A stretch of 64,000 nt of DNA from Promethearchaeia archaeon (GCA_046483985.1 JAWOCD010000021.1:1-64000), one strand, 5' to 3'; numbered from the stretch's first letter, positions 35,310-51,090 are shown. Notes: generated from the letters alone by a model not told the origin. Numbers and translations: made by a program.

Positions 35310-36092
35310 ATGATGTCGCAAAATGATGAATCTTGTCTATTATGTTTGAAAAATGTTAGTTATAAAATCAATTCAAAAGCAATTCTATCTAACATCTCGG
35401 TAAAGATTGAAGAGTTAGGAATTACTGGAATTATAGGACCTTCCGGTTCTGGTAAAAGTACATTGTTACGGATTATTAACCGTCTAATTTCACCCTCAGC
35501 TGGGACCATTCTCTTAGAAGGAAAGGATTATATTCAATTTACTCCTCAACAACTACGAAAACGAATTGGATTAGTTCAGCAAAAACCTTTCTTATTTCCA
35601 GGAACCGTGAAGGAAAATCTATTATACGGACCTAAAATCTGGGATTTACACTATTCAGATAAGGAATTAATTAACTTACTGAAAAAAGTGGCCCTGTCTG
35701 CTACGTTTCTTGAGAGAGAGGTGGATAATCTCTCAGTTGGAGAGCAACAGCGAGTAAGTTTGGCCAGAAGTCTAGCTAACAACCCCAAAATACTTTTATT
35801 GGACGAACCTACATCTGCTTTAGATATTGTGTCGGAAGAAATTATTGAGAATTCCCTAAAAAGCCTTAGGGATGAAGGATTAAAAATTATTATTGTCACT
35901 CACAGCTTAGATCAAACCAAAAGATTAGCTGACCAACTATTATTCTTAAAGGAAGGACGATTAGAAGATCTGGTCACTGCCACTGAATTTTTCAAAAGGT
36001 ATGATGAAGCTACTATTAGGGGATTTTTCAAAAAGGATAATAAAGGCCCAACAAGCCAAAGAAAAGAATTTAAAGAAAAGAGGGAGATATAA
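35310..36092 (+). CDS. ABC transporter ATP-binding protein (FetA/YbbL-like)
   Basis: Walker A GPSGSGKST, signature LSVGEQQR, Walker B LLLDEPTSALD and H-loop VTH. Confidence 0.9.
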   Translation: MMSQNDESCLLCLKNVSYKINSKAILSNISVKIEELGITGIIGPSGSGKSTLLRIINRLISPSAGTILLEGKDYIQFTPQQLRKRIGLVQQKPFLFPGTVKENLLYGPKIWDLHYSDKELINLLKKVALSATFLEREVDNLSVGEQQRVSLARSLANNPKILLLDEPTSALDIVSEEIIENSLKSLRDEGLKIIIVTHSLDQTKRLADQLLFLKEGRLEDLVTATEFFKRYDEATIRGFFKKDNKGPTSQRKEFKEKREI

Positions 36093-36095
36093 AAA

Positions 36096-36935
36096 TTGTT
36101 ATCACAAATTAGTGATGATTTGATCTTTGGTATTATTTCTCAGAAAGCACTAACGGATATACTCATCCGGTTTTTAATTTCCCTAGTTCTATTAGCCTTT
36201 ATTATCGCTTTGAGCTATTGGAATAATATTGGCATGGAGCAAGACTTTCTTTTTAGTTTTGCCCGGGGTTTCATTCAGATCATTTTAGCAGGCGCAATCT
36301 TAACAATCATTTTTGAGATAGAAAACATATTTCTGCTTTATGGGGTTATGCTCTTCATGTGCGGGTTCGCAGCCCATACGGGCTTTTCAAGATATGATTA
36401 TGGTGACTTGAACAGTTTTAAGATTCAGTTTACGTCCATTACCATAGCAAGTATGCTCATCATGATCCTAGTGCCCCTTTTAGGGATTATACCAATGGTT
36501 GGAGAATTTTTGATTCCTATGGGAGGATCTATTATCTCCAATACTATGGTGATTTCAAATATTTCGCTAGAAAGGGTATACTCGGATGTTAAAAAGTCAC
36601 GCGGTAAAATCGAAGCTGCATTAGCTTTAGGTGATACGCCGAGTAATGCTATATCTCCTATCATACGTGATTCTTTCCGGGCAGGATTGACTCCGTCGAC
36701 AAATAGAGTGGCGGTCTTAGGTATCGTTACAATTCCTGGATATATGAGTGGGATGATTATAGGTGGTATTGAACCCGTGGTTGCTGCAATTTACCAAGTT
36801 ATCATTTTTTTGATGATTTTAGCATCTGGATTTATGGGTGAAATCATTTCTGCCTTTTTACTAAAGCAAGAACTTTTCACCGAGGCGGACCAATTATTAC
36901 CTGATATCTACATTAAGGAAACTCCGAATGAGTAA
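36096..36935 (+). CDS. ABC permease, FetB/YbbM (UPF0014) family
   Basis: RGFIQ, IPMGG.IISN, IEAALALG and GIVTIPG.MSGMIIGG..P..AA.YQ motifs. Confidence 0.88.
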   Translation: MLSQISDDLIFGIISQKALTDILIRFLISLVLLAFIIALSYWNNIGMEQDFLFSFARGFIQIILAGAILTIIFEIENIFLLYGVMLFMCGFAAHTGFSRYDYGDLNSFKIQFTSITIASMLIMILVPLLGIIPMVGEFLIPMGGSIISNTMVISNISLERVYSDVKKSRGKIEAALALGDTPSNAISPIIRDSFRAGLTPSTNRVAVLGIVTIPGYMSGMIIGGIEPVVAAIYQVIIFLMILASGFMGEIISAFLLKQELFTEADQLLPDIYIKETPNE

Positions 36936-37471: not shown

Positions 37472-39205
37472 ATGAAAAAGAAAAAATTAGATAAAGAGAA
37501 TTTTAGGAAAAAAAAAGTTTTTACCGCCAGCATTGGACAGTGTGTGCATGTTGCTGGGGTTTTCAATTTCATGAATATTGCCGAGGAGCTTGGGTACAAT
37601 TGTAAGTTTCTTGGACCAGCAATACAAATTAAGGAACTAATCAGTAGAATTAAGAAACGTGAACCCAACATTTTGGGCTTAAGTTATCGCTTAACTCCTC
37701 AAACAGTTGATCAATTGCTTCAAGAGTTTTTTGAAAAATACAAGGATCTAGAAATAAAACCGCATAAGCTATTTTTTGCAGGTACTCCCGAGGTAGTGAA
37801 AATTGCACGAAAGTTTGATCAATTTGACCATTTTTTTATTGGCGGCGAATCTAAATTTGAGATCCTTAATATCTTGAAATTTAAAGAGGATTCTTCCAAG
37901 AGTATGAAAGAAGTTCCCATGGATTTAATTTCAAGGATAAAATGGAAGAAACCTTATCCAGTAATCCGTGCCCATTTTGGACTTCAAAATTTAAAGGATA
38001 CAATAAAAGGTATACGTAAAATCGCAGAAGCAAATGTCTTGGACATAATATCTATTGCACCCGATCAAAATACTCAAGCATATTATTTCCATCCCGAAAA
38101 GAGAGATGAGACCTACTCGGGTGCGGGGGGAGTTCCTTTAAGGTCACGGGAAGATTTTATTAAATTACACCATGCAAGATTAAGAGGGAACCATCCTCTT
38201 CTGAGGATATATGCAGGAACACAAGATTTCATAAAGTTGGCAAAATTATATAGGAATACCATCCGAAATGCATGGGGTGCCATTCCAATTTTTTGGTTTA
38301 ATGAGATGGATGGACGTGGCCCCCTTCCACTGGGAGAAGCAATACGACAACATCTTGAAGCTATTCATTGGCATGGAAAAAATGAGATTCCCGTTGAAAT
38401 CAACGACTCGCACCACTGGAGCTTACGTAATGCCCCAGATGCCGTTGCTGTCGCGGATATGTACTTATCTGGAATTATTGCCAAGAAGCTGGGAGTAAAA
38501 CATTTCATAGCACAATATATGTTTAATACCCCTCCGTCCGTTTCTTTTGAAATGGATCTTGCCAAGATGTTAGCAAAGACCGAATTACTTCAAACACTAA
38601 ATGATGATTCATTTTCAATAATAAAACAAGTGAGAACGGGATTGGCAAGCTTTCCCTTAGACTTGGATCGAGCAAAGGGTCAATTAGCGGCCGCAACTAT
38701 GGTTCAAATGGCCTTAAAGCCCGATATTATTCATGTAGTAAGTTACTCAGAAGCAAGACATGCTGCCAAGGCCGAGGGGGTGATTGAAAGTTGCCGGATT
38801 GTTGATCAAGTCGTGAATCAAATGTTTAACAGTGAGATGAATTTCCTCGATGATCGGGTAAGAAAAAGGAAAAAGGAGCTAATTGAACAAGCAAAATGGA
38901 TTATTAATTTAATTCCACGATTGGCAAAATCTAAAGATGAGAGGAAACACCCCTATACGAGCCCTACGGTCTTAAACCGATTAGTTAAGTATGGGATTTT
39001 TGATGCCCCCCACTTGAAGAATAATAAATTTGCTCGTGGTAAAATTCAAACTAAGATCAGCAATGGAGCGTGTTATTCATGGGATCCTACAAAAGAAAGA
39101 ATCCTTGATGAGAGAAAACGAATAAAAAATCTCGTTAAGATAGATTCGAGTCATCTTCAAGAATTGACGGGCAAGAAGTTCGAAGGTTTGGTGATAGGAA
39201 AGTGA
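37472..39205 (+). CDS. Cobalamin-binding protein with C-terminal TIM-barrel (putative AdoCbl-dependent mutase)
   Basis: N-terminal B12-binding CVHVAG (DxHxxG-like), LG and LSY motifs. Large C-terminal domain with RAHFG, DIISIAPDQ and HHWSLR. Confidence 0.75.
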   Translation: MKKKKLDKENFRKKKVFTASIGQCVHVAGVFNFMNIAEELGYNCKFLGPAIQIKELISRIKKREPNILGLSYRLTPQTVDQLLQEFFEKYKDLEIKPHKLFFAGTPEVVKIARKFDQFDHFFIGGESKFEILNILKFKEDSSKSMKEVPMDLISRIKWKKPYPVIRAHFGLQNLKDTIKGIRKIAEANVLDIISIAPDQNTQAYYFHPEKRDETYSGAGGVPLRSREDFIKLHHARLRGNHPLLRIYAGTQDFIKLAKLYRNTIRNAWGAIPIFWFNEMDGRGPLPLGEAIRQHLEAIHWHGKNEIPVEINDSHHWSLRNAPDAVAVADMYLSGIIAKKLGVKHFIAQYMFNTPPSVSFEMDLAKMLAKTELLQTLNDDSFSIIKQVRTGLASFPLDLDRAKGQLAAATMVQMALKPDIIHVVSYSEARHAAKAEGVIESCRIVDQVVNQMFNSEMNFLDDRVRKRKKELIEQAKWIINLIPRLAKSKDERKHPYTSPTVLNRLVKYGIFDAPHLKNNKFARGKIQTKISNGACYSWDPTKERILDERKRIKNLVKIDSSHLQELTGKKFEGLVIGK

Positions 39206-40308
39206 AATTTTCGGTAATAGGTGCCGGATCTGGAGGGCGAGCTTTTGCAGCTTATTTATCTTCTAAAGGACATCATGTCTCCTTATATAATCGTTCTTTT
39301 TCACGAATCAGACACATCCAACGAAAAGGAGGGGTTACGGCATCCGGAGAGATCAACGGGTTTTACCAGATTCCTGTTGTTACTCAAGATTTAAAACGTG
39401 CTTTAACCGATGCTAAAGTTATTTTTATTGTTATTCCAGCATCTGCCCATAAGTCTATTGCGAAAAAGATGGCGCCATTTCTCGAAGATGGGCAGATCAT
39501 TATTCTAAACCCAGGAAGGACGTTTGGTTCAATAGAAGTCAAGCAAATAATCCAACAAGGGACGGGTAAATCATCGGTATTAGTTGGGGAGACACAGACT
39601 CTTCTATTTACTTCACGCGCTCTAAAGAAGAATAAAGTCAAGATATTAAAAATTAAAAATTCCGTTGGTTTTTCAACTTTCCCAGATAAGTACGTTAATC
39701 AAGTTTATAATGTTCTTAAAGAGATTTTCCCCCAATGGGTACCTCATTCTGATTATTTCGAAGTTTCTATGAATAATATAGGTATGCTATTGCATCCCAC
39801 AATTTCTCTTTTAAATTCTGGTCTGATAGATCATGGAAAAGAATTCAATTTCTATAAAAAGGGGGCTACCCCCAGAATTTGCCGTATATTAGAAGAAATA
39901 GAATTAGAAATCAACAAAATTTTTGAAATGTTTGGGCTGGAGGGATACCGTTTTTGTATATGGGCGGAAAAGACTTACGGGGTGAATGCAATGAACATTT
40001 ACGAAGGGCTCCAAAAAATCAAAGCTTATGATACAATTACTGCTCCAAAGCAGCTGGTAACTCGTTATTTCACCGAAGACGTTTCGACTGGTTTGGTCCC
40101 ATTTTCCTCTTTGGGAAAATATTTAGGGATACGGACTCCCACTATTGATTCTATTATCCATTTATCCAGTTTAATTTGCGGAATTGATTTCAGAAAAGAG
40201 GGAAGAACGGTGGAGAAATTAAATATAGGCGATTTAGTTAATAGACGAATTGAACCCGATGTAATTATGACTTCAGAAACATTTGATATGGATATACCCT
40301 TCCTTTAA
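39202..40308 (+). CDS. NAD(P)-dependent opine (octopine/nopaline) dehydrogenase family
   Basis: VIGAGSGG, ILNPGRTFG, N.G.LLHP, FY..G and RYFTEDV..GLVP motifs. The GTG start overlaps the upstream TGA. Confidence 0.9.
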   Translation: MKFSVIGAGSGGRAFAAYLSSKGHHVSLYNRSFSRIRHIQRKGGVTASGEINGFYQIPVVTQDLKRALTDAKVIFIVIPASAHKSIAKKMAPFLEDGQIIILNPGRTFGSIEVKQIIQQGTGKSSVLVGETQTLLFTSRALKKNKVKILKIKNSVGFSTFPDKYVNQVYNVLKEIFPQWVPHSDYFEVSMNNIGMLLHPTISLLNSGLIDHGKEFNFYKKGATPRICRILEEIELEINKIFEMFGLEGYRFCIWAEKTYGVNAMNIYEGLQKIKAYDTITAPKQLVTRYFTEDVSTGLVPFSSLGKYLGIRTPTIDSIIHLSSLICGIDFRKEGRTVEKLNIGDLVNRRIEPDVIMTSETFDMDIPFL

Positions 40309-40358
40309 AGTGATTATCATTAGGATTATTAGTGGAATTGGAAGTTGATTTAAAATAT

Positions 40359-41894
40359 ATGACTGGAATCTTTATGTATAAAGATTTTAATGGGGGAAAC
40401 GTTCCTGAGAGCATAAAGTCTATGGAAAAAAAGATCTCCCATCGCGGTAAGTTTCTAAAGAAAAAAATTGTGAGTCCACACGGATACCTCACGGTCTATT
40501 TTAATAAACCCCAAATCACCAATCAATTGATTGAATTCTGGGATAAGGAGAGGGATATATTGGTAAAAGTTATTATTGACGGACAAATTTTTAATGCGCA
40601 CTCTCTTGCGAATCTTCTTAAAAAGCATACCCTCCACCCTAATCGAAACATCGGAAAACTGATTTATGAGGGGTATAACAAAAAAGGGTATTCCATCTTT
40701 AAAAAATTGAGTGGCTATTATTCCATCTTAATTGTTAAGGAAGAGAAAGTAATAATTGCTAAAGATCCCATTGGACATAACCCTTTGTATTATTCAAACA
40801 ATAATGGTTGCCTTATTATCGCTTCGGAATTAAAAGCGTTTATCAATGATGAAAATCAGCCAAGATATCTTCAGCCCGGTGTTGTACATATTTTTGATGG
40901 CGAGGATTCCAGCATTAAAAAATTCCATAGTTTTGAACAGTCTCTCAATAAATGCCTCTATGAAAGGGACAAACTTTCGAACATAAGAAAAAGTCTCTTT
41001 AACCGGTTAGAAAGAGCAGTTCAGAGGGCAATTAATACCCCTGGCAAGGTGGGTTCACTTTTAAGCGGTGGAATCGATTCATCCGTTATCTGCGCTTTGC
41101 TAACCAAACATTTACGCGAGGTTAATGTTTTCACGGTCGCAGCTCAAGGCTCCAAGGATTTACAGTTTGCAAAATTATTTGCTGAAGAGTATAACGATCA
41201 GCTGAATCATAAGTTTTTTATTATGGAAAAAGAGGAAATGATTGAGATCATTCCCGATGTAATTTATCATTTGGAATCATTTGATGCAGCATTAATCCGT
41301 AGCGCCATACCCATGTATTATATTTCTTCTAAATTAGAGGGAAAGGTTGATGTATTATTGACGGGTGAAGGCGGAGATGAATTATTTGGAGGGTATCACT
41401 ATTTAAAAGAATTAAGTGAGAAGGAACTCCAAGCAGAATTAAAACAGTTGCTTGATATTGAGCACGCTTTAGGTCTCCAACGGGTCGACAGGATTCCATA
41501 TGCTTTTGGAATCGAAGCAAGGGCACCGTGGTTTGATCTTCAACTTTCTAAGTTGGCTTTTCAAATACCTATGGGGATGAAACTTCGAAATCAAGAAGGA
41601 AAGATAATGGAAAAATGGATCATCCGACACACTTTCAAGGATATTCTACCGAGGGAAATTGCTTGGCGCGAGAAAGCAAAATTTTCTAAAGGTGTAGGGT
41701 CACAATTTATGATGAGAGACCATTTCGATGATCTTATCTCAAATGAGGAATTTGAAAGAGAGAAGGAAATATATAAGAATATAAAAGTAAGATCCAAAGA
41801 GGAGCTTTATTATTGGAGAGTTTTCCGTGAAATCTTTAATCCGACGAGAGAATTCATTAAAAATCTACCTCGAACTGAAAATTTTTCTCTTTAA
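40359..41894 (+). CDS. AsnB-like ATP-dependent amide ligase lacking the N-terminal Cys (MTGI)
   Basis: KDPIG..PLYY, ASELKA, LLSGGIDSS, LTGEGGDELFGGY, LQRVDR, EKW and WREK motifs. The likely start is the ATG at 40359 (MTGI versus canonical MCGI). Confidence 0.85.
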   Translation: MTGIFMYKDFNGGNVPESIKSMEKKISHRGKFLKKKIVSPHGYLTVYFNKPQITNQLIEFWDKERDILVKVIIDGQIFNAHSLANLLKKHTLHPNRNIGKLIYEGYNKKGYSIFKKLSGYYSILIVKEEKVIIAKDPIGHNPLYYSNNNGCLIIASELKAFINDENQPRYLQPGVVHIFDGEDSSIKKFHSFEQSLNKCLYERDKLSNIRKSLFNRLERAVQRAINTPGKVGSLLSGGIDSSVICALLTKHLREVNVFTVAAQGSKDLQFAKLFAEEYNDQLNHKFFIMEKEEMIEIIPDVIYHLESFDAALIRSAIPMYYISSKLEGKVDVLLTGEGGDELFGGYHYLKELSEKELQAELKQLLDIEHALGLQRVDRIPYAFGIEARAPWFDLQLSKLAFQIPMGMKLRNQEGKIMEKWIIRHTFKDILPREIAWREKAKFSKGVGSQFMMRDHFDDLISNEEFEREKEIYKNIKVRSKEELYYWRVFREIFNPTREFIKNLPRTENFSL

Positions 41895-41924
41895 AAATAT
41901 GCATCTTCATTTAACCAAACCATT

Positions 41925-42764
41925 TTGATTATAATTCTTTCAAAAATGAATAAACCAATGCTTTCTAAAGATGAGAAGGATACTACCGATAATGTAGATC
42001 CAGAGGTAAATAAATTTTTTTTTAATACCCCCAAATTATGGGATGAATTAACTGCAAATCAAGATCGTTTTCAAAAGCAATCTAAAAAAATTTTAGATAT
42101 TGTTGGAAAAATTTTCCCAACCTATAGCATATCTTTATTAGATGTGGGATGTGGAACAGCAGGTCATTTTGATTTATATACAGATCGGGGGATAAAATGC
42201 ACCGGAGTAGACTTAAATCCGAATATGATTAAGTATGCAAGAAGAAAATATCCCGAGACTGAATTTTATATCCAAGACATGAAGGATTTGACTTTTCAAG
42301 AGGATTTCCAAGTCATAACTTGCTTAAATAGTACATTCTTGTATAATATTACGAATAAGGAGATTATTTCCACACTAAAATCATTTCAAAAAGCCTTGGT
42401 CTCAGAAGGTATTCTTATAATCGATGTATCCGAACCGGTGACCTATCTACTTCATTGTGGCCGGAAAAATTTCAAAAAAGGATATACATATGAGATTTCT
42501 ACCAACAAAATTAGCATTTCAGTCCAAATTTCACTCGAATTTTTACCCAAAAAGCAAATTTATAAAGGCACCAGAACATTTAAGAGAAAAAATGATGAGG
42601 AAATCCTAACAAAAGAACCGATAAAATACAGAATTTTAGGAGTTCGAGAATTAAAGTTTTTCTTAGAGCAATGTGGGTTTAATATTCTTAATGTTGAGTT
42701 GCCTAAAGATAAAAGGGATTTAATTCCACGAAGAATTTCTCTCGTGGCTCAAATACAAGAATGA
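41925..42764 (+). CDS. Class I SAM-dependent methyltransferase
   Basis: LLDVGCGTAG, GVDLN..MI..AR, QDM and GILIID motifs. Confidence 0.9.
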   Translation: MIIILSKMNKPMLSKDEKDTTDNVDPEVNKFFFNTPKLWDELTANQDRFQKQSKKILDIVGKIFPTYSISLLDVGCGTAGHFDLYTDRGIKCTGVDLNPNMIKYARRKYPETEFYIQDMKDLTFQEDFQVITCLNSTFLYNITNKEIISTLKSFQKALVSEGILIIDVSEPVTYLLHCGRKNFKKGYTYEISTNKISISVQISLEFLPKKQIYKGTRTFKRKNDEEILTKEPIKYRILGVRELKFFLEQCGFNILNVELPKDKRDLIPRRISLVAQIQE

Positions 42765-42954
42765 TTAGTTAAGATATTGGATCCCTTTTACCTTTATTTC
42801 TTCTGTTGGGGGATTTCATGCCATTCACGATGAGAAACCTCTTGTATTTTAGGGGATATTTCCTGTTCATGAATTAAGTATTTTTGTAAAATGACAAGAT
42901 CATTTATATTAGGATTTTAGTTAATACTAGTTAAAACAAAATTTTTGATTCGTT

Positions 42955-43653
42955 ATGAAAAAAAATACTATATCATTGAAAGGGGTTTCAAAACATTATC
43001 AAATGGGTGAAACCACGGTAAAAGCTTTGGATGATATTGACTTAGAAATAACTGCTGGAGAATTAATTGCAATTCTTGGCCCTTCTGGGGCGGGAAAGAC
43101 AACTTTGCTCAATTTACTGGGAGGGATTACAACCCCTACCAGTGGAACAATTAATATTTTTGGAAAACAAATACAAGGGTATTCTACGGCTGAATTAGCG
43201 GGATATAGGAAAAAGAATGTAAGTTTCATATTTCAATTTTTTAATCTCTTACCCACCTTGAATGCCATGGAAAATGTAGAAGTTGCCATTGAGATGTTAG
43301 GGTCTAAAGGAAAAGTGAAAAAAATCGCAAAAAGTTATCTTGAAGATGTCGACTTAGCGGATCGAATTAATCATTTTCCGTCCCAATTAAGCGGAGGGGA
43401 ACAACAAAGAGTGGCGGTAGCTCGCGCACTTGCTAAACAACCATTCACCGATTGTAATTTTATGGTATTGTGCGATGAACCCACGGGAAATTTGGACGAG
43501 AAAACAGGTGACAAGATCCTTAAATTAATTAAAAATCTAAGCGAAGAGCATAACGCTACCTTTATAATTGTGACTCATAATGAACTCATAGTTGAGAAGT
43601 TAGATGCCAATGAAATTCACATCCACGATGGGAAAATAACCGAAAATAACTAA
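42955..43653 (+). CDS. LolD/MacB-type ABC ATPase
   Basis: [29 protein letters not shown] and DEPTGNLD. Confidence 0.93.
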
Positions 43654-43669
43654 CGGGGTAAATAATTGA

Positions 43670-46114
43670 ATGAAAAAACTTTATTTAAAACCGATACGAG
43701 ACTTAAAACATATGGGCAAGCGGGGGATTGTAGTAATCCTTATCTTGGGACTTTGCATTGGATTTGTGCTCTCAATGTTTTTTATGTCCACGGATATATT
43801 ACCCGTTTTTCGGGGGTTCTATGAAGAGGCAAATGCCGCCGATTATACATACGAAACTTCTGGATTTAATTCAAGCTTTATTGAGGATGAAATTGCGCAA
43901 ATAGATGGTGTAGAGGACATCCAAGCAAGATTGATTGTTCAATACCCTTTAGAAATAGAAGGCCGAGATGAAATTTTACAGCTTCGATTAGTGGGTGTTG
44001 ATATAACTGAAGATTTTGATAATACAAAAAATTTGGATATTTATTCCTACGAAATGGAGGATGGTAGGAATTTGGAACCGGATGATGATGAGTTATCGAT
44101 TATCTTGTCCAAACGATTTGTCGAGAACAATGAGGAAATAGAGGTAAGAGATAATTTAACCGTGGGAGCGTTAGGAGATGAAGAATTTAACATTAAAGGC
44201 TCCTTTTTTTCTATGGAATTCGTTATGGTCAACACATTACCAGAAGTCTTATTTCCGGTTCATGGAACCATGGGAGTTGCCCTTCTAAATAGAACTGTAC
44301 TGCAAGATCTCATAAGTGAACATCGACCTGATCAATTCGAACCGTATCATCGTTGTGATTATAATGAATTACAAGTAACTTTTCAAGAAGGTGTAGATGC
44401 TGAAAGTGTTAATGATGAGATTGAAGATGTATTTAAAGATTCTGGGGTCATAAGAAAATCAAGTACTCCATTTGAAGAAAGTTATACGTGGAAGATGATG
44501 GAGGCAGATCTAGAAGGCTCTGCAGAGTTTATGAGCGTATTTATGGTGCTCGCATTAATTATGGCTTTTACTTCTTCCCTTTCTATCTTTATGCGATTTG
44601 CGATAAATCAAAAACAACAAATGGGAACGCTTTCTTCTCTGGGCTATACAAAAAAAGATATCTATAAATCCTTTTTGGTCTTGGTTCTTCTAATTAGCGT
44701 GATTGCGTCCATAATAGGTGCCTTATTCGGTTATCTAATGATGTTTGGAATGTTTATGGAATTTTCGTCTGAAATTTTAGGTATTACGTTTTTTTATCCG
44801 TTTGAATTTAAATTTCTCTGGGGGTCTTTTGTCTTATGCATAGTATTAGCGTTAATTTCAATTCTTCCGGCAGTTCGGAAATTATTGAAAAGAGATATGG
44901 CAGATCTATTGTATAAAAAAGAAAAGCTCTATTCAAGAGTGTCCCACATGAAACAAACATCTAATATAAAGGCATCCACAAAGATCGTGTTGCGAAATCT
45001 CTTTAGACATCCTAAAAAGTCACTTCTTAATTTGATTGGAATCGGTTTTTCGCTTTTAATCGTTGCAGCATCTTTAGTAATGGCTACCTCTGTAGATTAT
45101 ACGGTAAATGATAAAATCTATGAAACAGAATCATGGGATGCATCTATAGATTTATCATCTGCCGAGTTTAAGACAAATATCATTAATGAAATTGAAGATG
45201 TTGATGATATTGAGAAAGTCGATTACGCACTTAAATCGCCGGTTATCATGGAAAATCCCGAAAAGGATGATATTGATGAATTAAATACTCATATTTTGGG
45301 ATTATACGAAAACTTTTCCATGCATGAGTATAACTTAGTTGAGTTTAAAGGAAAAGAGAGCAGATTATTCGAAAACAGTGATGAGGTAGTGGTCTGTCTT
45401 ACCATTATGAACAGAATGGAACTCGAAATAGGGCAAGAGGTAAATTTTACAACACCGATGGGACAAGAAAAAGAATTCGAAATTGTAGGAGTTTCGGACG
45501 AAATTATGGCAATCTCTTATGTAGATTTAGATGGTTTTGGGAAATTTATGAATATGACGAATAAGATCAACAACATCTACGTTCAGTTTAAATCTGAATT
45601 ATCAAGAGAGGAGCGAAAGACTGCAATAGGAGATATTTATGACGTAGATGAGAACGTGATGCTTGTCCAAGACCTGGGGGATATTGTAGACGATATCGGT
45701 TATTATGCTGATACGCTGATCCCATTCATAGGAATTCTTATTGGATTTGCCTCAATCGTTGCATTCTTTATTTTATATAATGCAACTCTCATGTCAATAG
45801 GAGATCATGAGTCTGAATATGGCATATTACGGTCATTGGGTTATAAGAAACGAAAAATCTATAAGACAATTATATCTGAAAATCTTTTACCTCTCTTGAT
45901 CTCGATTGTCATCTCGGTGGTGTTGACCCCATTCGTAGGAACATGGCTACTATCGTTGTATGAAGAGTATTTTGCTATGTCTCTTTTCATCCCTCCATGG
46001 GTATATATTGCGACAATAATAATACCAATCTTGGTGATTCTATGGGCAGGTCGATCTGGTATGAAATACATTTATAGTAGAAACCTCTATAAACAGGTCC
46101 AAACCAATATATAG
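43670..46114 (+). CDS. FtsX/MacB-like ABC permease (two repeats)
   Basis: Two units of TM + acidic extracytoplasmic domain + 3 TM. MGTLSSLGY and YGILRSLGY motifs. Confidence 0.88.
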   Translation: MKKLYLKPIRDLKHMGKRGIVVILILGLCIGFVLSMFFMSTDILPVFRGFYEEANAADYTYETSGFNSSFIEDEIAQIDGVEDIQARLIVQYPLEIEGRDEILQLRLVGVDITEDFDNTKNLDIYSYEMEDGRNLEPDDDELSIILSKRFVENNEEIEVRDNLTVGALGDEEFNIKGSFFSMEFVMVNTLPEVLFPVHGTMGVALLNRTVLQDLISEHRPDQFEPYHRCDYNELQVTFQEGVDAESVNDEIEDVFKDSGVIRKSSTPFEESYTWKMMEADLEGSAEFMSVFMVLALIMAFTSSLSIFMRFAINQKQQMGTLSSLGYTKKDIYKSFLVLVLLISVIASIIGALFGYLMMFGMFMEFSSEILGITFFYPFEFKFLWGSFVLCIVLALISILPAVRKLLKRDMADLLYKKEKLYSRVSHMKQTSNIKASTKIVLRNLFRHPKKSLLNLIGIGFSLLIVAASLVMATSVDYTVNDKIYETESWDASIDLSSAEFKTNIINEIEDVDDIEKVDYALKSPVIMENPEKDDIDELNTHILGLYENFSMHEYNLVEFKGKESRLFENSDEVVVCLTIMNRMELEIGQEVNFTTPMGQEKEFEIVGVSDEIMAISYVDLDGFGKFMNMTNKINNIYVQFKSELSREERKTAIGDIYDVDENVMLVQDLGDIVDDIGYYADTLIPFIGILIGFASIVAFFILYNATLMSIGDHESEYGILRSLGYKKRKIYKTIISENLLPLLISIVISVVLTPFVGTWLLSLYEEYFAMSLFIPPWVYIATIIIPILVILWAGRSGMKYIYSRNLYKQVQTNI

Positions 46115-46187: not shown

Positions 46188-47288
46188 TTATAATAAATAG
46201 TAACTTATGAACAAGAGCACTACAGCAGCCACCAAAGACCCCCAAGCAAATTTATTCCAATCGAAAATGCGTTTGCCATTAAACGGCACGAATGGAAAAA
46301 ATACTAAGATTACATCTAAGACAAGAAGAGTTCTCCCTATAAATCCGATAAGAAATAGCAAATCAGCAATTAATAACGGTAAGCTAAACATATTCAGTAT
46401 TATGAAACTTAACCACGTTAGAATTAGCACCGATAGAGAACTAAAAAATGCACTTCGGCCGAGTTGTGGGATGAATTCTGAATACCGCCATCTTTTAACA
46501 TCAGGATAAAAAGACCCAGGCAGGATAAAGGGGAGAGAGAAGGCAGCTACACCAAAACTTAGAAAGTAACCTGAATCCCAAGGTCGATATCGCATTGGGA
46601 CGTTGCTCCCTCTGACTTCCAACCACATAATAAATAATCGAAGACCAACAATACTTAATAAAGCCAGAGGTGCTAGGAGGATAAGTTGCCAAGGAAGTAA
46701 CCTAAATCCAAATCTAGACCATATTGCAAGGAGGACAATGAGGGAATTCAGAAAAAACGTACGAGCTAATTGGGTAATTTGTTTTTCGTGTCTTTGTGGT
46801 GCAGGCCGTATCCAAACAAAATGACCGATATCCATGTAATGAAATATATTAAACCATATTTTGATCATTTGGAAAAAACTATAACGTCTGAGTTGTTCTC
46901 CCATCGATATGATCTCAAAACCACGGGTAGCGAATATCTTACTTGATGAGGTATTTAATCCTTCAACACATGCGAAGATAACATCGCACCCTTCATTTTC
47001 AAGGTACTGGAGCGCACCTTCTACCAGTTGTTGTCCTACTCCTAATCCTTGCACCTTTGGAGACGTAAATAACCAAGAGATCAACCCCCCTTTTTGATCA
47101 TCAGAGATGTTAAACATTTTTGGCAAGACACCGCCAACCAGTTCTCCCCTCAGTTCGGCAACAAAAATATCGGATGTAAAATAAAAGAAAATCCACTCAA
47201 AAAATCTGAAAGCGTCTCGAACCAGTTTTCGTACCTCTTTCTTTTCATCATCTTGCATAGGTCGAATGGTGATCTCCATAATCATCAA
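46188..47288 (-). CDS. GNAT acetyltransferase fused to a membrane domain resembling an inactive M50 (site-2) protease
   Basis: GNAT motif QGLGVGQQL..A and N.SS..IF...GF. The C-terminal TM region with RPW..G....F..PG and P...PFNGKRIFDWNK is M50-like but has no HExxH. Confidence 0.65.
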   Translation of the reverse strand: MMIMEITIRPMQDDEKKEVRKLVRDAFRFFEWIFFYFTSDIFVAELRGELVGGVLPKMFNISDDQKGGLISWLFTSPKVQGLGVGQQLVEGALQYLENEGCDVIFACVEGLNTSSSKIFATRGFEIISMGEQLRRYSFFQMIKIWFNIFHYMDIGHFVWIRPAPQRHEKQITQLARTFFLNSLIVLLAIWSRFGFRLLPWQLILLAPLALLSIVGLRLFIMWLEVRGSNVPMRYRPWDSGYFLSFGVAAFSLPFILPGSFYPDVKRWRYSEFIPQLGRSAFFSSLSVLILTWLSFIILNMFSLPLLIADLLFLIGFIGRTLLVLDVILVFFPFVPFNGKRIFDWNKFAWGSLVAAVVLLFISYYLL

Positions 47289-49458: not shown

Positions 49459-49833
49459 TTATATTGGTAGGGAATTTGTTTTAAACCACTTCTTAATATC
49501 TTCAAAGGTCTTTTTGCCTTTCGCGGTTTGAATGGTCACCTCGTACACATCGTCATTTGAAGTTTCGAAAAAATAACCGTTCTTATTTAGACAAATTACC
49601 GCTATGATAAATCCGATTCTTTTATTCCCATCCGCAAAAAAATGTTCGCTTACTATATCTCTATATAGGATAGCCACTCGATCCCAAATAGTGGGCTGTG
49701 GATGGAACGGAATCCCCCATTCGCCCTTATCTATAGTCGCCTTTAATCCTTCTTGATTCATCAAAATCGGCTTTTTATCTAAGCACTCCTGGAATACTTC
49801 AAGTATATACGCTACTGAGGGGAGCCATACCAT
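49459..49833 (-). CDS. Doc/Fic family toxin
   Basis: Doc motif HFFADGNKRIG. Confidence 0.88.
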   Translation of the reverse strand: MVWLPSVAYILEVFQECLDKKPILMNQEGLKATIDKGEWGIPFHPQPTIWDRVAILYRDIVSEHFFADGNKRIGFIIAVICLNKNGYFFETSNDDVYEVTIQTAKGKKTFEDIKKWFKTNSLPI

Positions 49834-50619: not shown

Positions 50620-51090
50620 TTATTTAATATAGTCTGCTTCTTTAAGCAACTGATCATACCAAATCTTATGATCGTAATAGAGGGGAAGTAGTTTCTCCAA
50701 AAACTCGGGAAATACTTGAGGGTTTTGCTCATAAATCAATAATCGATATTTGATTGCGTTGAACTGTACGTGTAATGGAAGATTTTGCAGGACGGAAATC
50801 TCTATTTTTTCAATCTCAGCTAATTCACTTGCTTTTACATGGAGTTTTGTTAAAATAGAAAGCTGTTGTTTACCAGGGAATTCCTTAAACTTAGGGATTG
50901 AAACGAAAATATCCACATCGCTCCACCATTGATTCCTATTTTCTGCCCACGATCCGCCAAGACAAGCAAACTCAATATCATATTGTTTGAAAAGATTCCT
51001 CAACTTTCGACCAAGATATCGAGTCATTTCTTCTTCCGTGTTGGGAAATCCCTTATTTCTTTCAAAATCTTGACTCTCTGCGCGTCTCAT
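50620..51090 (-). CDS. MNT (MntA-like) nucleotidyltransferase antitoxin
   Basis: LGGSWA.....WSDVDI and L.NLPLHVQFNAI...LLIYE. Confidence 0.8.
   Translation of the reverse strand: MRRAESQDFERNKGFPNTEEEMTRYLGRKLRNLFKQYDIEFACLGGSWAENRNQWWSDVDIFVSIPKFKEFPGKQQLSILTKLHVKASELAEIEKIEISVLQNLPLHVQFNAIKYRLLIYEQNPQVFPEFLEKLLPLYYDHKIWYDQLLKEADYIK

Follow-up and report, generated by a model that had tools for sequence, protein, structure and literature searches.

What do a coenzyme-B12-dependent mutase, an opine dehydrogenase, a homolog of asparagine synthetase B (AsnB) and a methyltransferase accomplish together, and do the ATP-binding cassette (ABC) transporter genes that follow them belong to the same system? 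The question is raised by a run of six plus-strand genes, found by open reading frame (ORF) calling between positions 37472 and 46114 of the window, the 64,000-nucleotide (nt) stretch of a Promethearchaeia archaeon, a Loki-type member of the Asgard group, analyzed here (GCA_046483985.1 JAWOCD010000021.1:1-64000; GC content ~33%; genome 97% complete). An initial annotation, made from the sequence alone, had proposed a cluster that builds and exports a small molecule. After comparison with fetched loci (L numbers) and genomes (G numbers), our answer is narrower. With moderate confidence, we read 37472-42764 as one four-gene operon encoding an extended mutase-dehydrogenase pathway, which would make an amidated, methylated opine-type solute, and we place the ABC genes outside it. 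The gene links, folds and residue signatures behind this reading are direct observations, described below. In order, the features are:

37472-39205, plus strand: B12 mutase gene, 577 amino acids (aa)
39202-40308, plus strand: opine dehydrogenase gene, 368 aa, with a GTG start
40332 (GTG) or 40359 (ATG) to 41894, plus strand: AsnB-like gene, with Asn_synthase and GATase_7 domains
41925 (TTG) or 41946 (ATG) to 42764, plus strand: class I S-adenosylmethionine (SAM) methyltransferase gene, matching Methyltransf_25/11/31/23
42765-42954, plus strand: spacer of 190 nt between the methyltransferase and ABC genes
42955-43653, plus strand: ABC ATPase gene of the LolD/MacB/FtsE type, matching ABC_tran
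43670-46114, plus strand: FtsX/MacB-type permease gene, 814 aa, duplicated, with two FtsX domains and MacB_PCD

The ORF calls and the sequence at 39201-39205 confirm the co-directional run and the overlap that had been noted between its first two genes. These positions read aGTGA, where the GTG start of the dehydrogenase gene overlaps the TGA stop of the mutase gene (GTGA, 39202-39205), and the dehydrogenase is translationally coupled to the mutase through this overlap. The gaps that follow the dehydrogenase gene are, in gene order, 50, 51, 190 and 16 nt. Where the first three or four genes are concerned, the arrangement is beyond chance, being conserved in other genomes; this does not hold for the ABC pair.

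At the center of the operon stands the mutase-dehydrogenase pair. The mutase has >6000 homologs, of which the best 120 are 63-76% identical and, where the source is named, come from Asgard lineages, the closest being found in metagenome-assembled genomes of Promethearchaeota. It is present in 56 of 151 Asgard genomes. The dehydrogenase is its immediate neighbor in 16/16 genome loci and 5/5 contig loci, with the mutase gene leading in close kin and the order reversed in distant kin. Scanning species genomes yielded 80 loci, 29 of them Asgard, with the non-Asgard loci coming from Thermoanaerobacterales, Tissierellia, Anaerolineae and others at identities of 45-50%. A full mutase ORF is present in 79 of the fetched loci, and 69 of these also have a labelled dehydrogenase ORF, mostly adjacent to the mutase ORF. 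Overall, the pair is adjacent in nearly all of ~100 loci from Asgard archaea, Firmicutes and Chloroflexota.

This linkage has a precedent in the literature. Zhang, Rodionov, Gelfand and Gladyshev (2009, BMC Genomics 10:78, PMC2667541) predicted a new family of B12-dependent proteins that has an N-terminal B12-binding domain and is “always adjacent” to an octopine/nopaline dehydrogenase (pfam02317) and, in several organisms, in the vicinity of asparagine synthase or D-Ala-D-Ala ligase genes. The window shares the N-terminal B12-binding domain, on a protein within the family's size range of ~550-580 aa, the adjacent pfam02317 dehydrogenase and the nearby AsnB-type gene; the paper, however, covered 11 bacteria and no archaea, and assigned the family neither a GlmE fold nor a function. 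Beyond it, we add Asgard archaea to the range of the family and, as partners, an AsnB whose glutaminase is dead and a methyltransferase. The initial proposal that the mutase, the opine dehydrogenase and an AsnB homolog lacking the N-terminal Cys form a unit is thus sustained, as the association recurs in archaea and bacteria, in agreement with Zhang et al. An assay of the mutase-dehydrogenase pair was not found in the searchable literature, and no characterization came up for opine dehydrogenase in connection with Asgard, glutamate mutase, compatible solutes or ydaO.

The fold of the mutase hints at its chemistry. Pfam assigns it a B12-binding domain (PF02310, residues 15-78) and a Met_asp_mut_E domain, both weakly, the latter at a borderline 27.3 versus a cut-off of 26.6, and the mutase profile matches corrinoid protein 4jgi at E 7e-9. 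The cobalamin loop, QCVHVAG, conforms to DxHxxG with Cys for Asp and is followed by SYRL; the motifs xVHVAG and SYRL are invariant. PDB sequence searches with the single sequence or a profile matched only the B12 domain and returned nothing for the barrel. The AlphaFold model (predicted local distance difference test, pLDDT, 81) finds its best Foldseek matches in glutamate mutase E (6h9e_B/1cb7_B; E 6e-17; template modelling score, normalized to the target, 0.65-0.67), and next in the ranking are aminomutases that use both pyridoxal phosphate (PLP) and B12, and methylmalonyl-CoA mutases. As modelled, the protein is a single-chain mutase of the adenosylcobalamin (AdoCbl) type, with an N-terminal cobalamin domain fused to a GlmE-like TIM barrel.

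Glutamate mutase GlmS/GlmE of Clostridium cochlearium (EC 5.4.99.1; 1cb7, 6h9e) is the best structural match to this barrel, and the likeness extends to a cobalamin domain with a His-on type motif, the colinear motif GT.D and a barrel Trp. The window enzyme differs in that S and E are fused, S first, and in sharing only 16% identity. The substrate residues also appear to be replaced. R66, R100, R149, E171 and Y181, the glutamate-binding residues of GlmE, were confirmed in the GlmE of two bacterial genomes and in 6h9e; in an hhalign comparison that is colinear but has a probability of 1.8%, and is hence provisional, they face H168, Q202, Y247, P272 and D280 of the mutase. Our reading is that the enzyme is a carbon-skeleton mutase akin to GlmE but acting on another substrate. 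True GlmE (~745 bits, PF06368) coexists with the orphan mutase in the genomes of a Tissierellaceae and a Halanaerobiales (L124 at G153:C12 versus L129; L125 at G155:C38 versus L128), and therefore the two enzymes are not redundant.

Two other identities for the mutase were tried and rejected. PLP-dependent aminomutases, such as lysine 5,6- and ornithine 4,5-aminomutase, have a PLP-binding Lys in the cobalamin domain, which the window mutase lacks: the PLP-lysine of lysine 5,6-aminomutase (Lys144 in the beta chain of 1xrs) is matched by the near-invariant Ala37, which makes a PLP aminomutase unlikely, and no invariant Lys occurs within residues 1-140. The classical methylaspartate pathway was discarded because its ammonia-lyase was not found, the 97%-complete window genome having no PF07476 match. 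At L120 (G134:C72, 1303-3116), a 153-aa ORF with no Pfam match overlaps the start of a short AsnB-like gene; it weakly resembles the mutase's cobalamin-binding head (33% across 55 aa) and may be a stand-alone B12-domain partner.

The dehydrogenase carries a signature of substrate specificity. It matches Octopine_DH (PF02317) at 120 bits, has the Rossmann GxGxxG as GAGSGG at its N terminus, and aligns across residues 3-346 with Arthrobacter CENDH in the PDB (1bg6, E 2e-75), its catalytic H198 falling on His202 of that structure. R106 and G194 occupy the positions of ArODH residues 111 and 198, and all three residues (R106, G194, H198) are invariant in 66/66 aligned mutase-linked dehydrogenases. 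By double mutagenesis, Telek et al. (2024, PMC10787698) found that A111R/N198G of ArODH switches the preference to L-Asp/L-Glu with pyruvate, preferably with NADPH. The window enzyme shares its fold and catalytic His with mODH-45, mODH-49 and mODH-582 of that study and with CENDH/ArODH (1bg6), and it carries the Arg/Gly pair of the mODHs for L-Asp/L-Glu with pyruvate and NADPH. Because R106/G194 match this experimentally proven signature, the window dehydrogenase is predicted to be of the acidic-amino-acid type (L-Asp/L-Glu plus pyruvate). That paper did not address what the mODHs do physiologically and makes no mention of B12 neighbors.

The same signature bears on the staphylopine-type metallophores that the initial annotation had invoked. 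In the staphylopine system (CntKLM), the nicotianamine-synthase-like CntL works alongside a dehydrogenase of the Staph_opine_DH type, and neither was found here. The window dehydrogenase has no match to Staph_opine_DH (PF10100) at E<=0.001 and is predicted to be of the L-Asp/L-Glu plus pyruvate type, and a metallophore was rejected as the product because the window genome has no nicotianamine-synthase (PF03059) match, hence no CntL-type gene.

The third gene encodes the AsnB homolog, matched by Pfam to Asn_synthase (198 bits) and GATase_7. Read from the ATG at 40359, a start supported by the closest relative, which likewise begins MTGIF, the protein starts MTGIF and includes LLSGGIDSS and LTGEGGDELFGGY; the annotated MTGI start and the SGGIDS and GEGGDE motifs are thereby confirmed. 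E. coli AsnB (1ct9) is by far its nearest match in the PDB (E 9e-44), ahead of CarA (1q15, 2e-18) and beta-lactam synthetase (1jgt, 5e-15), which share with it the absence of the N-terminal Cys. It falls below the equivalog cut-offs for asparagine synthetase (PRK09431, 333 versus 499 bits; TIGR01536, 224 versus 267), and the lasso cyclase model scores 75 bits versus a cut-off of 525. Five glutaminase residues of E. coli AsnB, Cys1, R49, N74, E76 and D98, are replaced by T, F, D, Q and N, whereas the PP-loop SGGxDS and the synthetase residues E348, D351, E352, K429 and K449 are kept. Judged by these residues, the glutaminase site is dead and the adenylation site is intact. A functional precedent for an AsnB-family enzyme that amidates the carboxylate of an osmolyte is the AsnO-type amidotransferase of N-acetylglutaminylglutamine amide synthesis (TIGR03104), although the window protein scores only 139 bits against the cut-off of 570, has no Ngg-type partner and lies in a different operon.

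An AsnB-like gene stands beside the pair in 10 of the 80 loci, which were fetched blind. The order is dehydrogenase-mutase-AsnB in Caldanaerobacter subterraneus (L073) and Thermoanaerobacter thermocopriae (L096), and mutase-dehydrogenase-AsnB in three Chloroflexota, the Anaerolineae loci L085, L094 and L105. Homologs of the window AsnB at E<1e-56 occur in 12 of 151 Asgard genomes; 11 of the 12 carry the mutase as well, compared with 56 among all 151 genomes, and in seven of the 12 the two genes share a contig within a few kb, counts that overstate independence because the genomes are related. Most of the linked AsnB genes have lost their glutaminase residues likewise, and two, L094 and L096, keep all of them, the AsnB of L096 being a close sister of the Cys-less AsnB of Caldanaerobacter. 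On these sequences, the AsnB accessory has repeatedly lost its glutaminase site. The complete sites in L094 and L096 fit amidation with glutamine-derived or free ammonia and argue against an intramolecular lactam; the lactam or intramolecular amide first suggested is weakened to that extent.

The only genome of this AsnB clade in which no mutase was found is G030. In its locus L118 (G030:C39, 3451-7887), two methyltransferase-like genes precede an AsnB-like gene in decay, with a PP-loop reading TGGDS, the GEG.DE motif lost and an in-frame TAA; the locus looks like a remnant after loss of the pair.

The methyltransferase (motif I LLDVGCGTA; Pfam Methyltransf_25/11/31/23) is a rarer partner. None of 150 Asgard genomes yielded an ortholog, and one homolog, 73% identical, was found among 5.8 billion proteins. 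This lone homolog (L108) lies directly after an MTGIF AsnB, and both genes are divergent from the mutase-dehydrogenase pair, so the AsnB-methyltransferase adjacency has survived rearrangement. Similar associations occur elsewhere: at L105 (Anaerolineales), an unrelated class I methyltransferase overlaps the stop of the AsnB-like gene; in a sister Asgard clade, a ~200-aa gene precedes every AsnB-like gene; and six Loki-type AsnB relatives come directly behind a methyltransferase-like gene. One longer relative of the ~200-aa partner scores above the cut-offs of Methyltransf_31 and Methyltransf_12 and contains a GxGxG loop, which most members have lost. A tblastn search of the window found no homolog of the methyltransferase-like partner family (A2/A3), and we do not claim homology between the two methyltransferase partners beyond a hint of shared fold, the profile relation being insignificant. 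A methyltransferase-fold partner of the AsnB-like gene is recurrent, on thinner evidence than that for AsnB, and L108, L105 and the Loki-type loci bear out the link that had been drawn between the two genes.

Does the operon build a product or break one down? ATP-using ligases recur beside the pair, since Ddl-like genes are found there in 10/80 loci, as are AsnB-like genes. In 6/6 Firmicute loci tested, two of which are dehydrogenase-mutase-AsnB operons, the dehydrogenase gene has a cyclic di-AMP (c-di-AMP) riboswitch (100-118 bits) immediately upstream. Riboswitches of this class are established regulators of potassium and osmolyte transport, along with some cell-wall genes. Near the pair in Chloroflexota are a ClC chloride channel that carries CBS and TrkA-C domains, Na/Ca exchangers and a gene resembling mannosylglycerate hydrolase (L085, 7698-9746 and 16489-17466; L094, 6269-9862), neighbors that suggest an ion and osmotic context. 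Thus, recurrent ligases, riboswitch and ion-related neighbors favor the synthesis of a stress solute, and the biosynthetic direction initially proposed is supported over breakdown by the ATP-dependent ligases and the c-di-AMP riboswitch.

Two further blocks of neighbors were seen. In six Asgard loci (L004, L016, L034, L036, L041 and L043), the pair and its major facilitator superfamily (MFS) gene are followed on the opposite strand by Peptidase_C26/GATase, GGACT and GCS2 genes (enzymes of the gamma-glutamyl-amine type) and then by 2-hydroxyacyl-CoA dehydratase genes. In the Tissierellia loci L078, L097, L089 and L061, the region upstream of the riboswitch encodes three subunits of 2-oxoacid:ferredoxin oxidoreductase, a member of the acetate kinase family and a CbiA-like protein; this block may be synteny only.

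The last two genes of the run belong to a transporter family, as seen in the ABC ATPase (ABC_tran, 109 bits; LolD, 221 bits, below its cut-off), the FtsX permease and the MacB_PCD extracytoplasmic domains. No counterpart of either gene adjoins the pair in any of the 16 genome loci or at L108, the locus of the closest relative; across the 80 fetched loci, generic ATPase matches occur in seven, none adjoining the pair, and the permease query matched in two (L063 and L098). The spacer before them has T-rich runs after the methyltransferase stop, a terminator-like hairpin listed by a consensus scan at 42838-42855 and a TATA-like TTTATATT box ~55 nt before the ABC start, and may thus hold a terminator and a promoter. 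The ABC transporter is probably a neighbor in a separate transcription unit and not a member of the pathway. The exporter was therefore probably wrongly counted in the cluster, being unconserved in ~100 loci and set behind a 190-nt spacer; the initial annotation had named lack of conserved linkage to methyltransferase and exporter as grounds for refutation, and this applies to the exporter, whereas the methyltransferase linkage is conserved. Many Asgard loci have an MFS transporter gene after the pair; with the queries used, neither this transporter nor the Ddl-like ligase of other loci was found in the window genome, and a 502-aa gene near the pair in L108 is not the MFS transporter. Nothing supports the ABC genes as a stand-in for the MFS transporter, though they conceivably could be one.

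Other genes surround the run. A FetA/FetB-type (UPF0014) ABC pair lies upstream on the plus strand (35310-36935), 536 nt from the operon, and was not seen with the mutase pair in the loci examined, scattered generic ATPase matches labelled FetA excepted. Convergent with the ABC permease, on the minus strand at 46188-47288, is the gene for a protein of 366 aa whose N-terminal domain is a GNAT acetyltransferase. Among small ORFs further on, also on the minus strand, a short Fic/DOC-family gene (49459-49833) and a Pol-beta-type nucleotidyltransferase gene (50620-51090) look like toxin-antitoxin-type modules.

From the four enzymes, we infer the substrates, the order of steps and the role of the solute as follows. 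The NADPH-type dehydrogenase would reductively condense an acidic L-amino acid (Glu- or Asp-like) with pyruvate to an N-(1-carboxyethyl) amino acid. The AdoCbl enzyme, GlmE-like with a rebuilt pocket, would carry out a radical 1,2 rearrangement of the carbon skeleton that yields a branched, methylaspartate-like moiety, acting either on the free amino acid beforehand or on the opine itself. Next, the AsnB-like enzyme would adenylate a side-chain carboxylate and convert it to a carboxamide, presumably with free ammonia because its glutaminase half is dead, and the SAM methyltransferase would add a methyl group. The product, as predicted from these sequences, is most likely a small, charge-reduced cytoplasmic solute for osmotic or potassium balance.

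Several points weigh against this reading of the four genes as an opine-solute pathway. The step order and the choice of amino acid are conjectural, and the comparison of GlmE residues rests on a low-probability profile alignment. The tree gives the linked AsnB genes no single origin: at least three groups of them fall in a polytomy with E. coli AsnB. About three quarters of the loci carry neither ligase, and AsnB and the methyltransferase are therefore accessories. Conservation of the window methyltransferase extends to a single close relative, and profile comparison did not connect it with the A2/A3 family. The riboswitch evidence is confined to Firmicutes: Rfam found none in six Chloroflexota loci, and neither a riboswitch nor any other RNA family in the window. 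Lastly, the 2-hydroxyacyl-CoA dehydratase genes, Lrp/AsnC regulators and MFS transporter that often accompany the pair in Asgard loci would suit amino-acid breakdown too. They are part of the case for a catabolic module, in which the pair degrades an imported amino acid or opine for fermentation, with oxidative cleavage by the dehydrogenase and rearrangement by the mutase, and AsnB and the methyltransferase are side activities or unrelated. We consider this unlikely. The dehydratase subunits come with their activator, 2-oxoacid:ferredoxin oxidoreductase and acetate-kinase-family genes lie upstream in Tissierellia, and the reversibility of opine dehydrogenases is established enzymology. Set against these are the recurrence of ATP-consuming amide ligases within the operon; the position of the Firmicute riboswitch between the oxidoreductase genes and the pair, which marks them as separate units; the methylaspartate ammonia-lyase not found in the window genome; and the relatedness of the Asgard genomes with dehydratase neighbors, which may reflect inherited synteny.

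It is quite unlikely that genes 1-4 make a secreted or surface metabolite (a metallophore, an antibiotic-like lactam or an envelope decoration) exported by the MacB-type ABC transporter. The six genes are indeed co-directional, the window genome is without the MFS transporter, so that another could stand in, Cys-less relatives of AsnB such as beta-lactam synthetase and CarA form lactams (1jgt, 1q15), and a penicillin-binding-protein gene adjoins the operon in L073. Yet the ABC genes are absent from the locus of the closest relative and ~100 others, scattered generic matches aside, and sit behind a spacer with T-runs and a TATA-like box; the usual substrates of MacB-type pumps are extracytoplasmic. 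The window genome offers neither a nicotianamine-synthase gene nor a PF10100 match, the AsnB homolog is far closer to AsnB than to either lactam-forming enzyme, and the intact glutaminase sites of L094 and L096 imply ammonia transfer. We find it very improbable that only the pair is a unit, with the AsnB homolog serving as the organism's ammonia-dependent asparagine synthetase and the methyltransferase being unrelated. The gene is the only full-length AsnB found in the window genome, its synthetase residues are intact and E. coli AsnB is its closest solved structure. However, its closest homologs occur almost only in mutase genomes and beside the mutase, in both archaea and bacteria, and its PRK09431 score is far below the cut-off. 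Because GatB and GatE are present in the genome and most genomes of the family lack AsnB (no homolog at E<=1e-20 in 19 of 25), a housekeeping role is unlikely; the genome also has a single AspRS/AsnRS-type match, no second such gene and no AsnA. Ammonia dependence, which the initial annotation had considered as part of an ordinary asparagine synthetase, is thus probably right, and the ordinary asparagine synthetase is not.

If the four genes do encode an opine-solute pathway, a bolder conjecture, to which we give a low probability, is that the B12 enzyme is the first AdoCbl mutase to rearrange an opine, an N-carboxyethyl acidic amino acid, and that in this Asgard lineage the product is further amidated by the glutaminase-dead AsnB and methylated, giving a new class of branched, charge-neutralized opine osmolytes. 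If true, this class of opine osmolytes would be common to Asgard archaea and anaerobic bacteria. About one in three of the sampled Asgard genomes has the pair, as do many anaerobic Firmicutes and Chloroflexota. To what is known of the pair, the window adds the repeated loss of the glutaminase in the AsnB accessory and an Asgard methyltransferase-fold partner, and its four-enzyme variant narrows the chemistry to an amidated side-chain carboxylate of the aspartyl type. A new substrate class would be a real addition to the very small family of coenzyme-B12 carbon-skeleton mutases, and a new solute would be relevant to the ways in which Asgard archaea and thermophilic anaerobes withstand salt.

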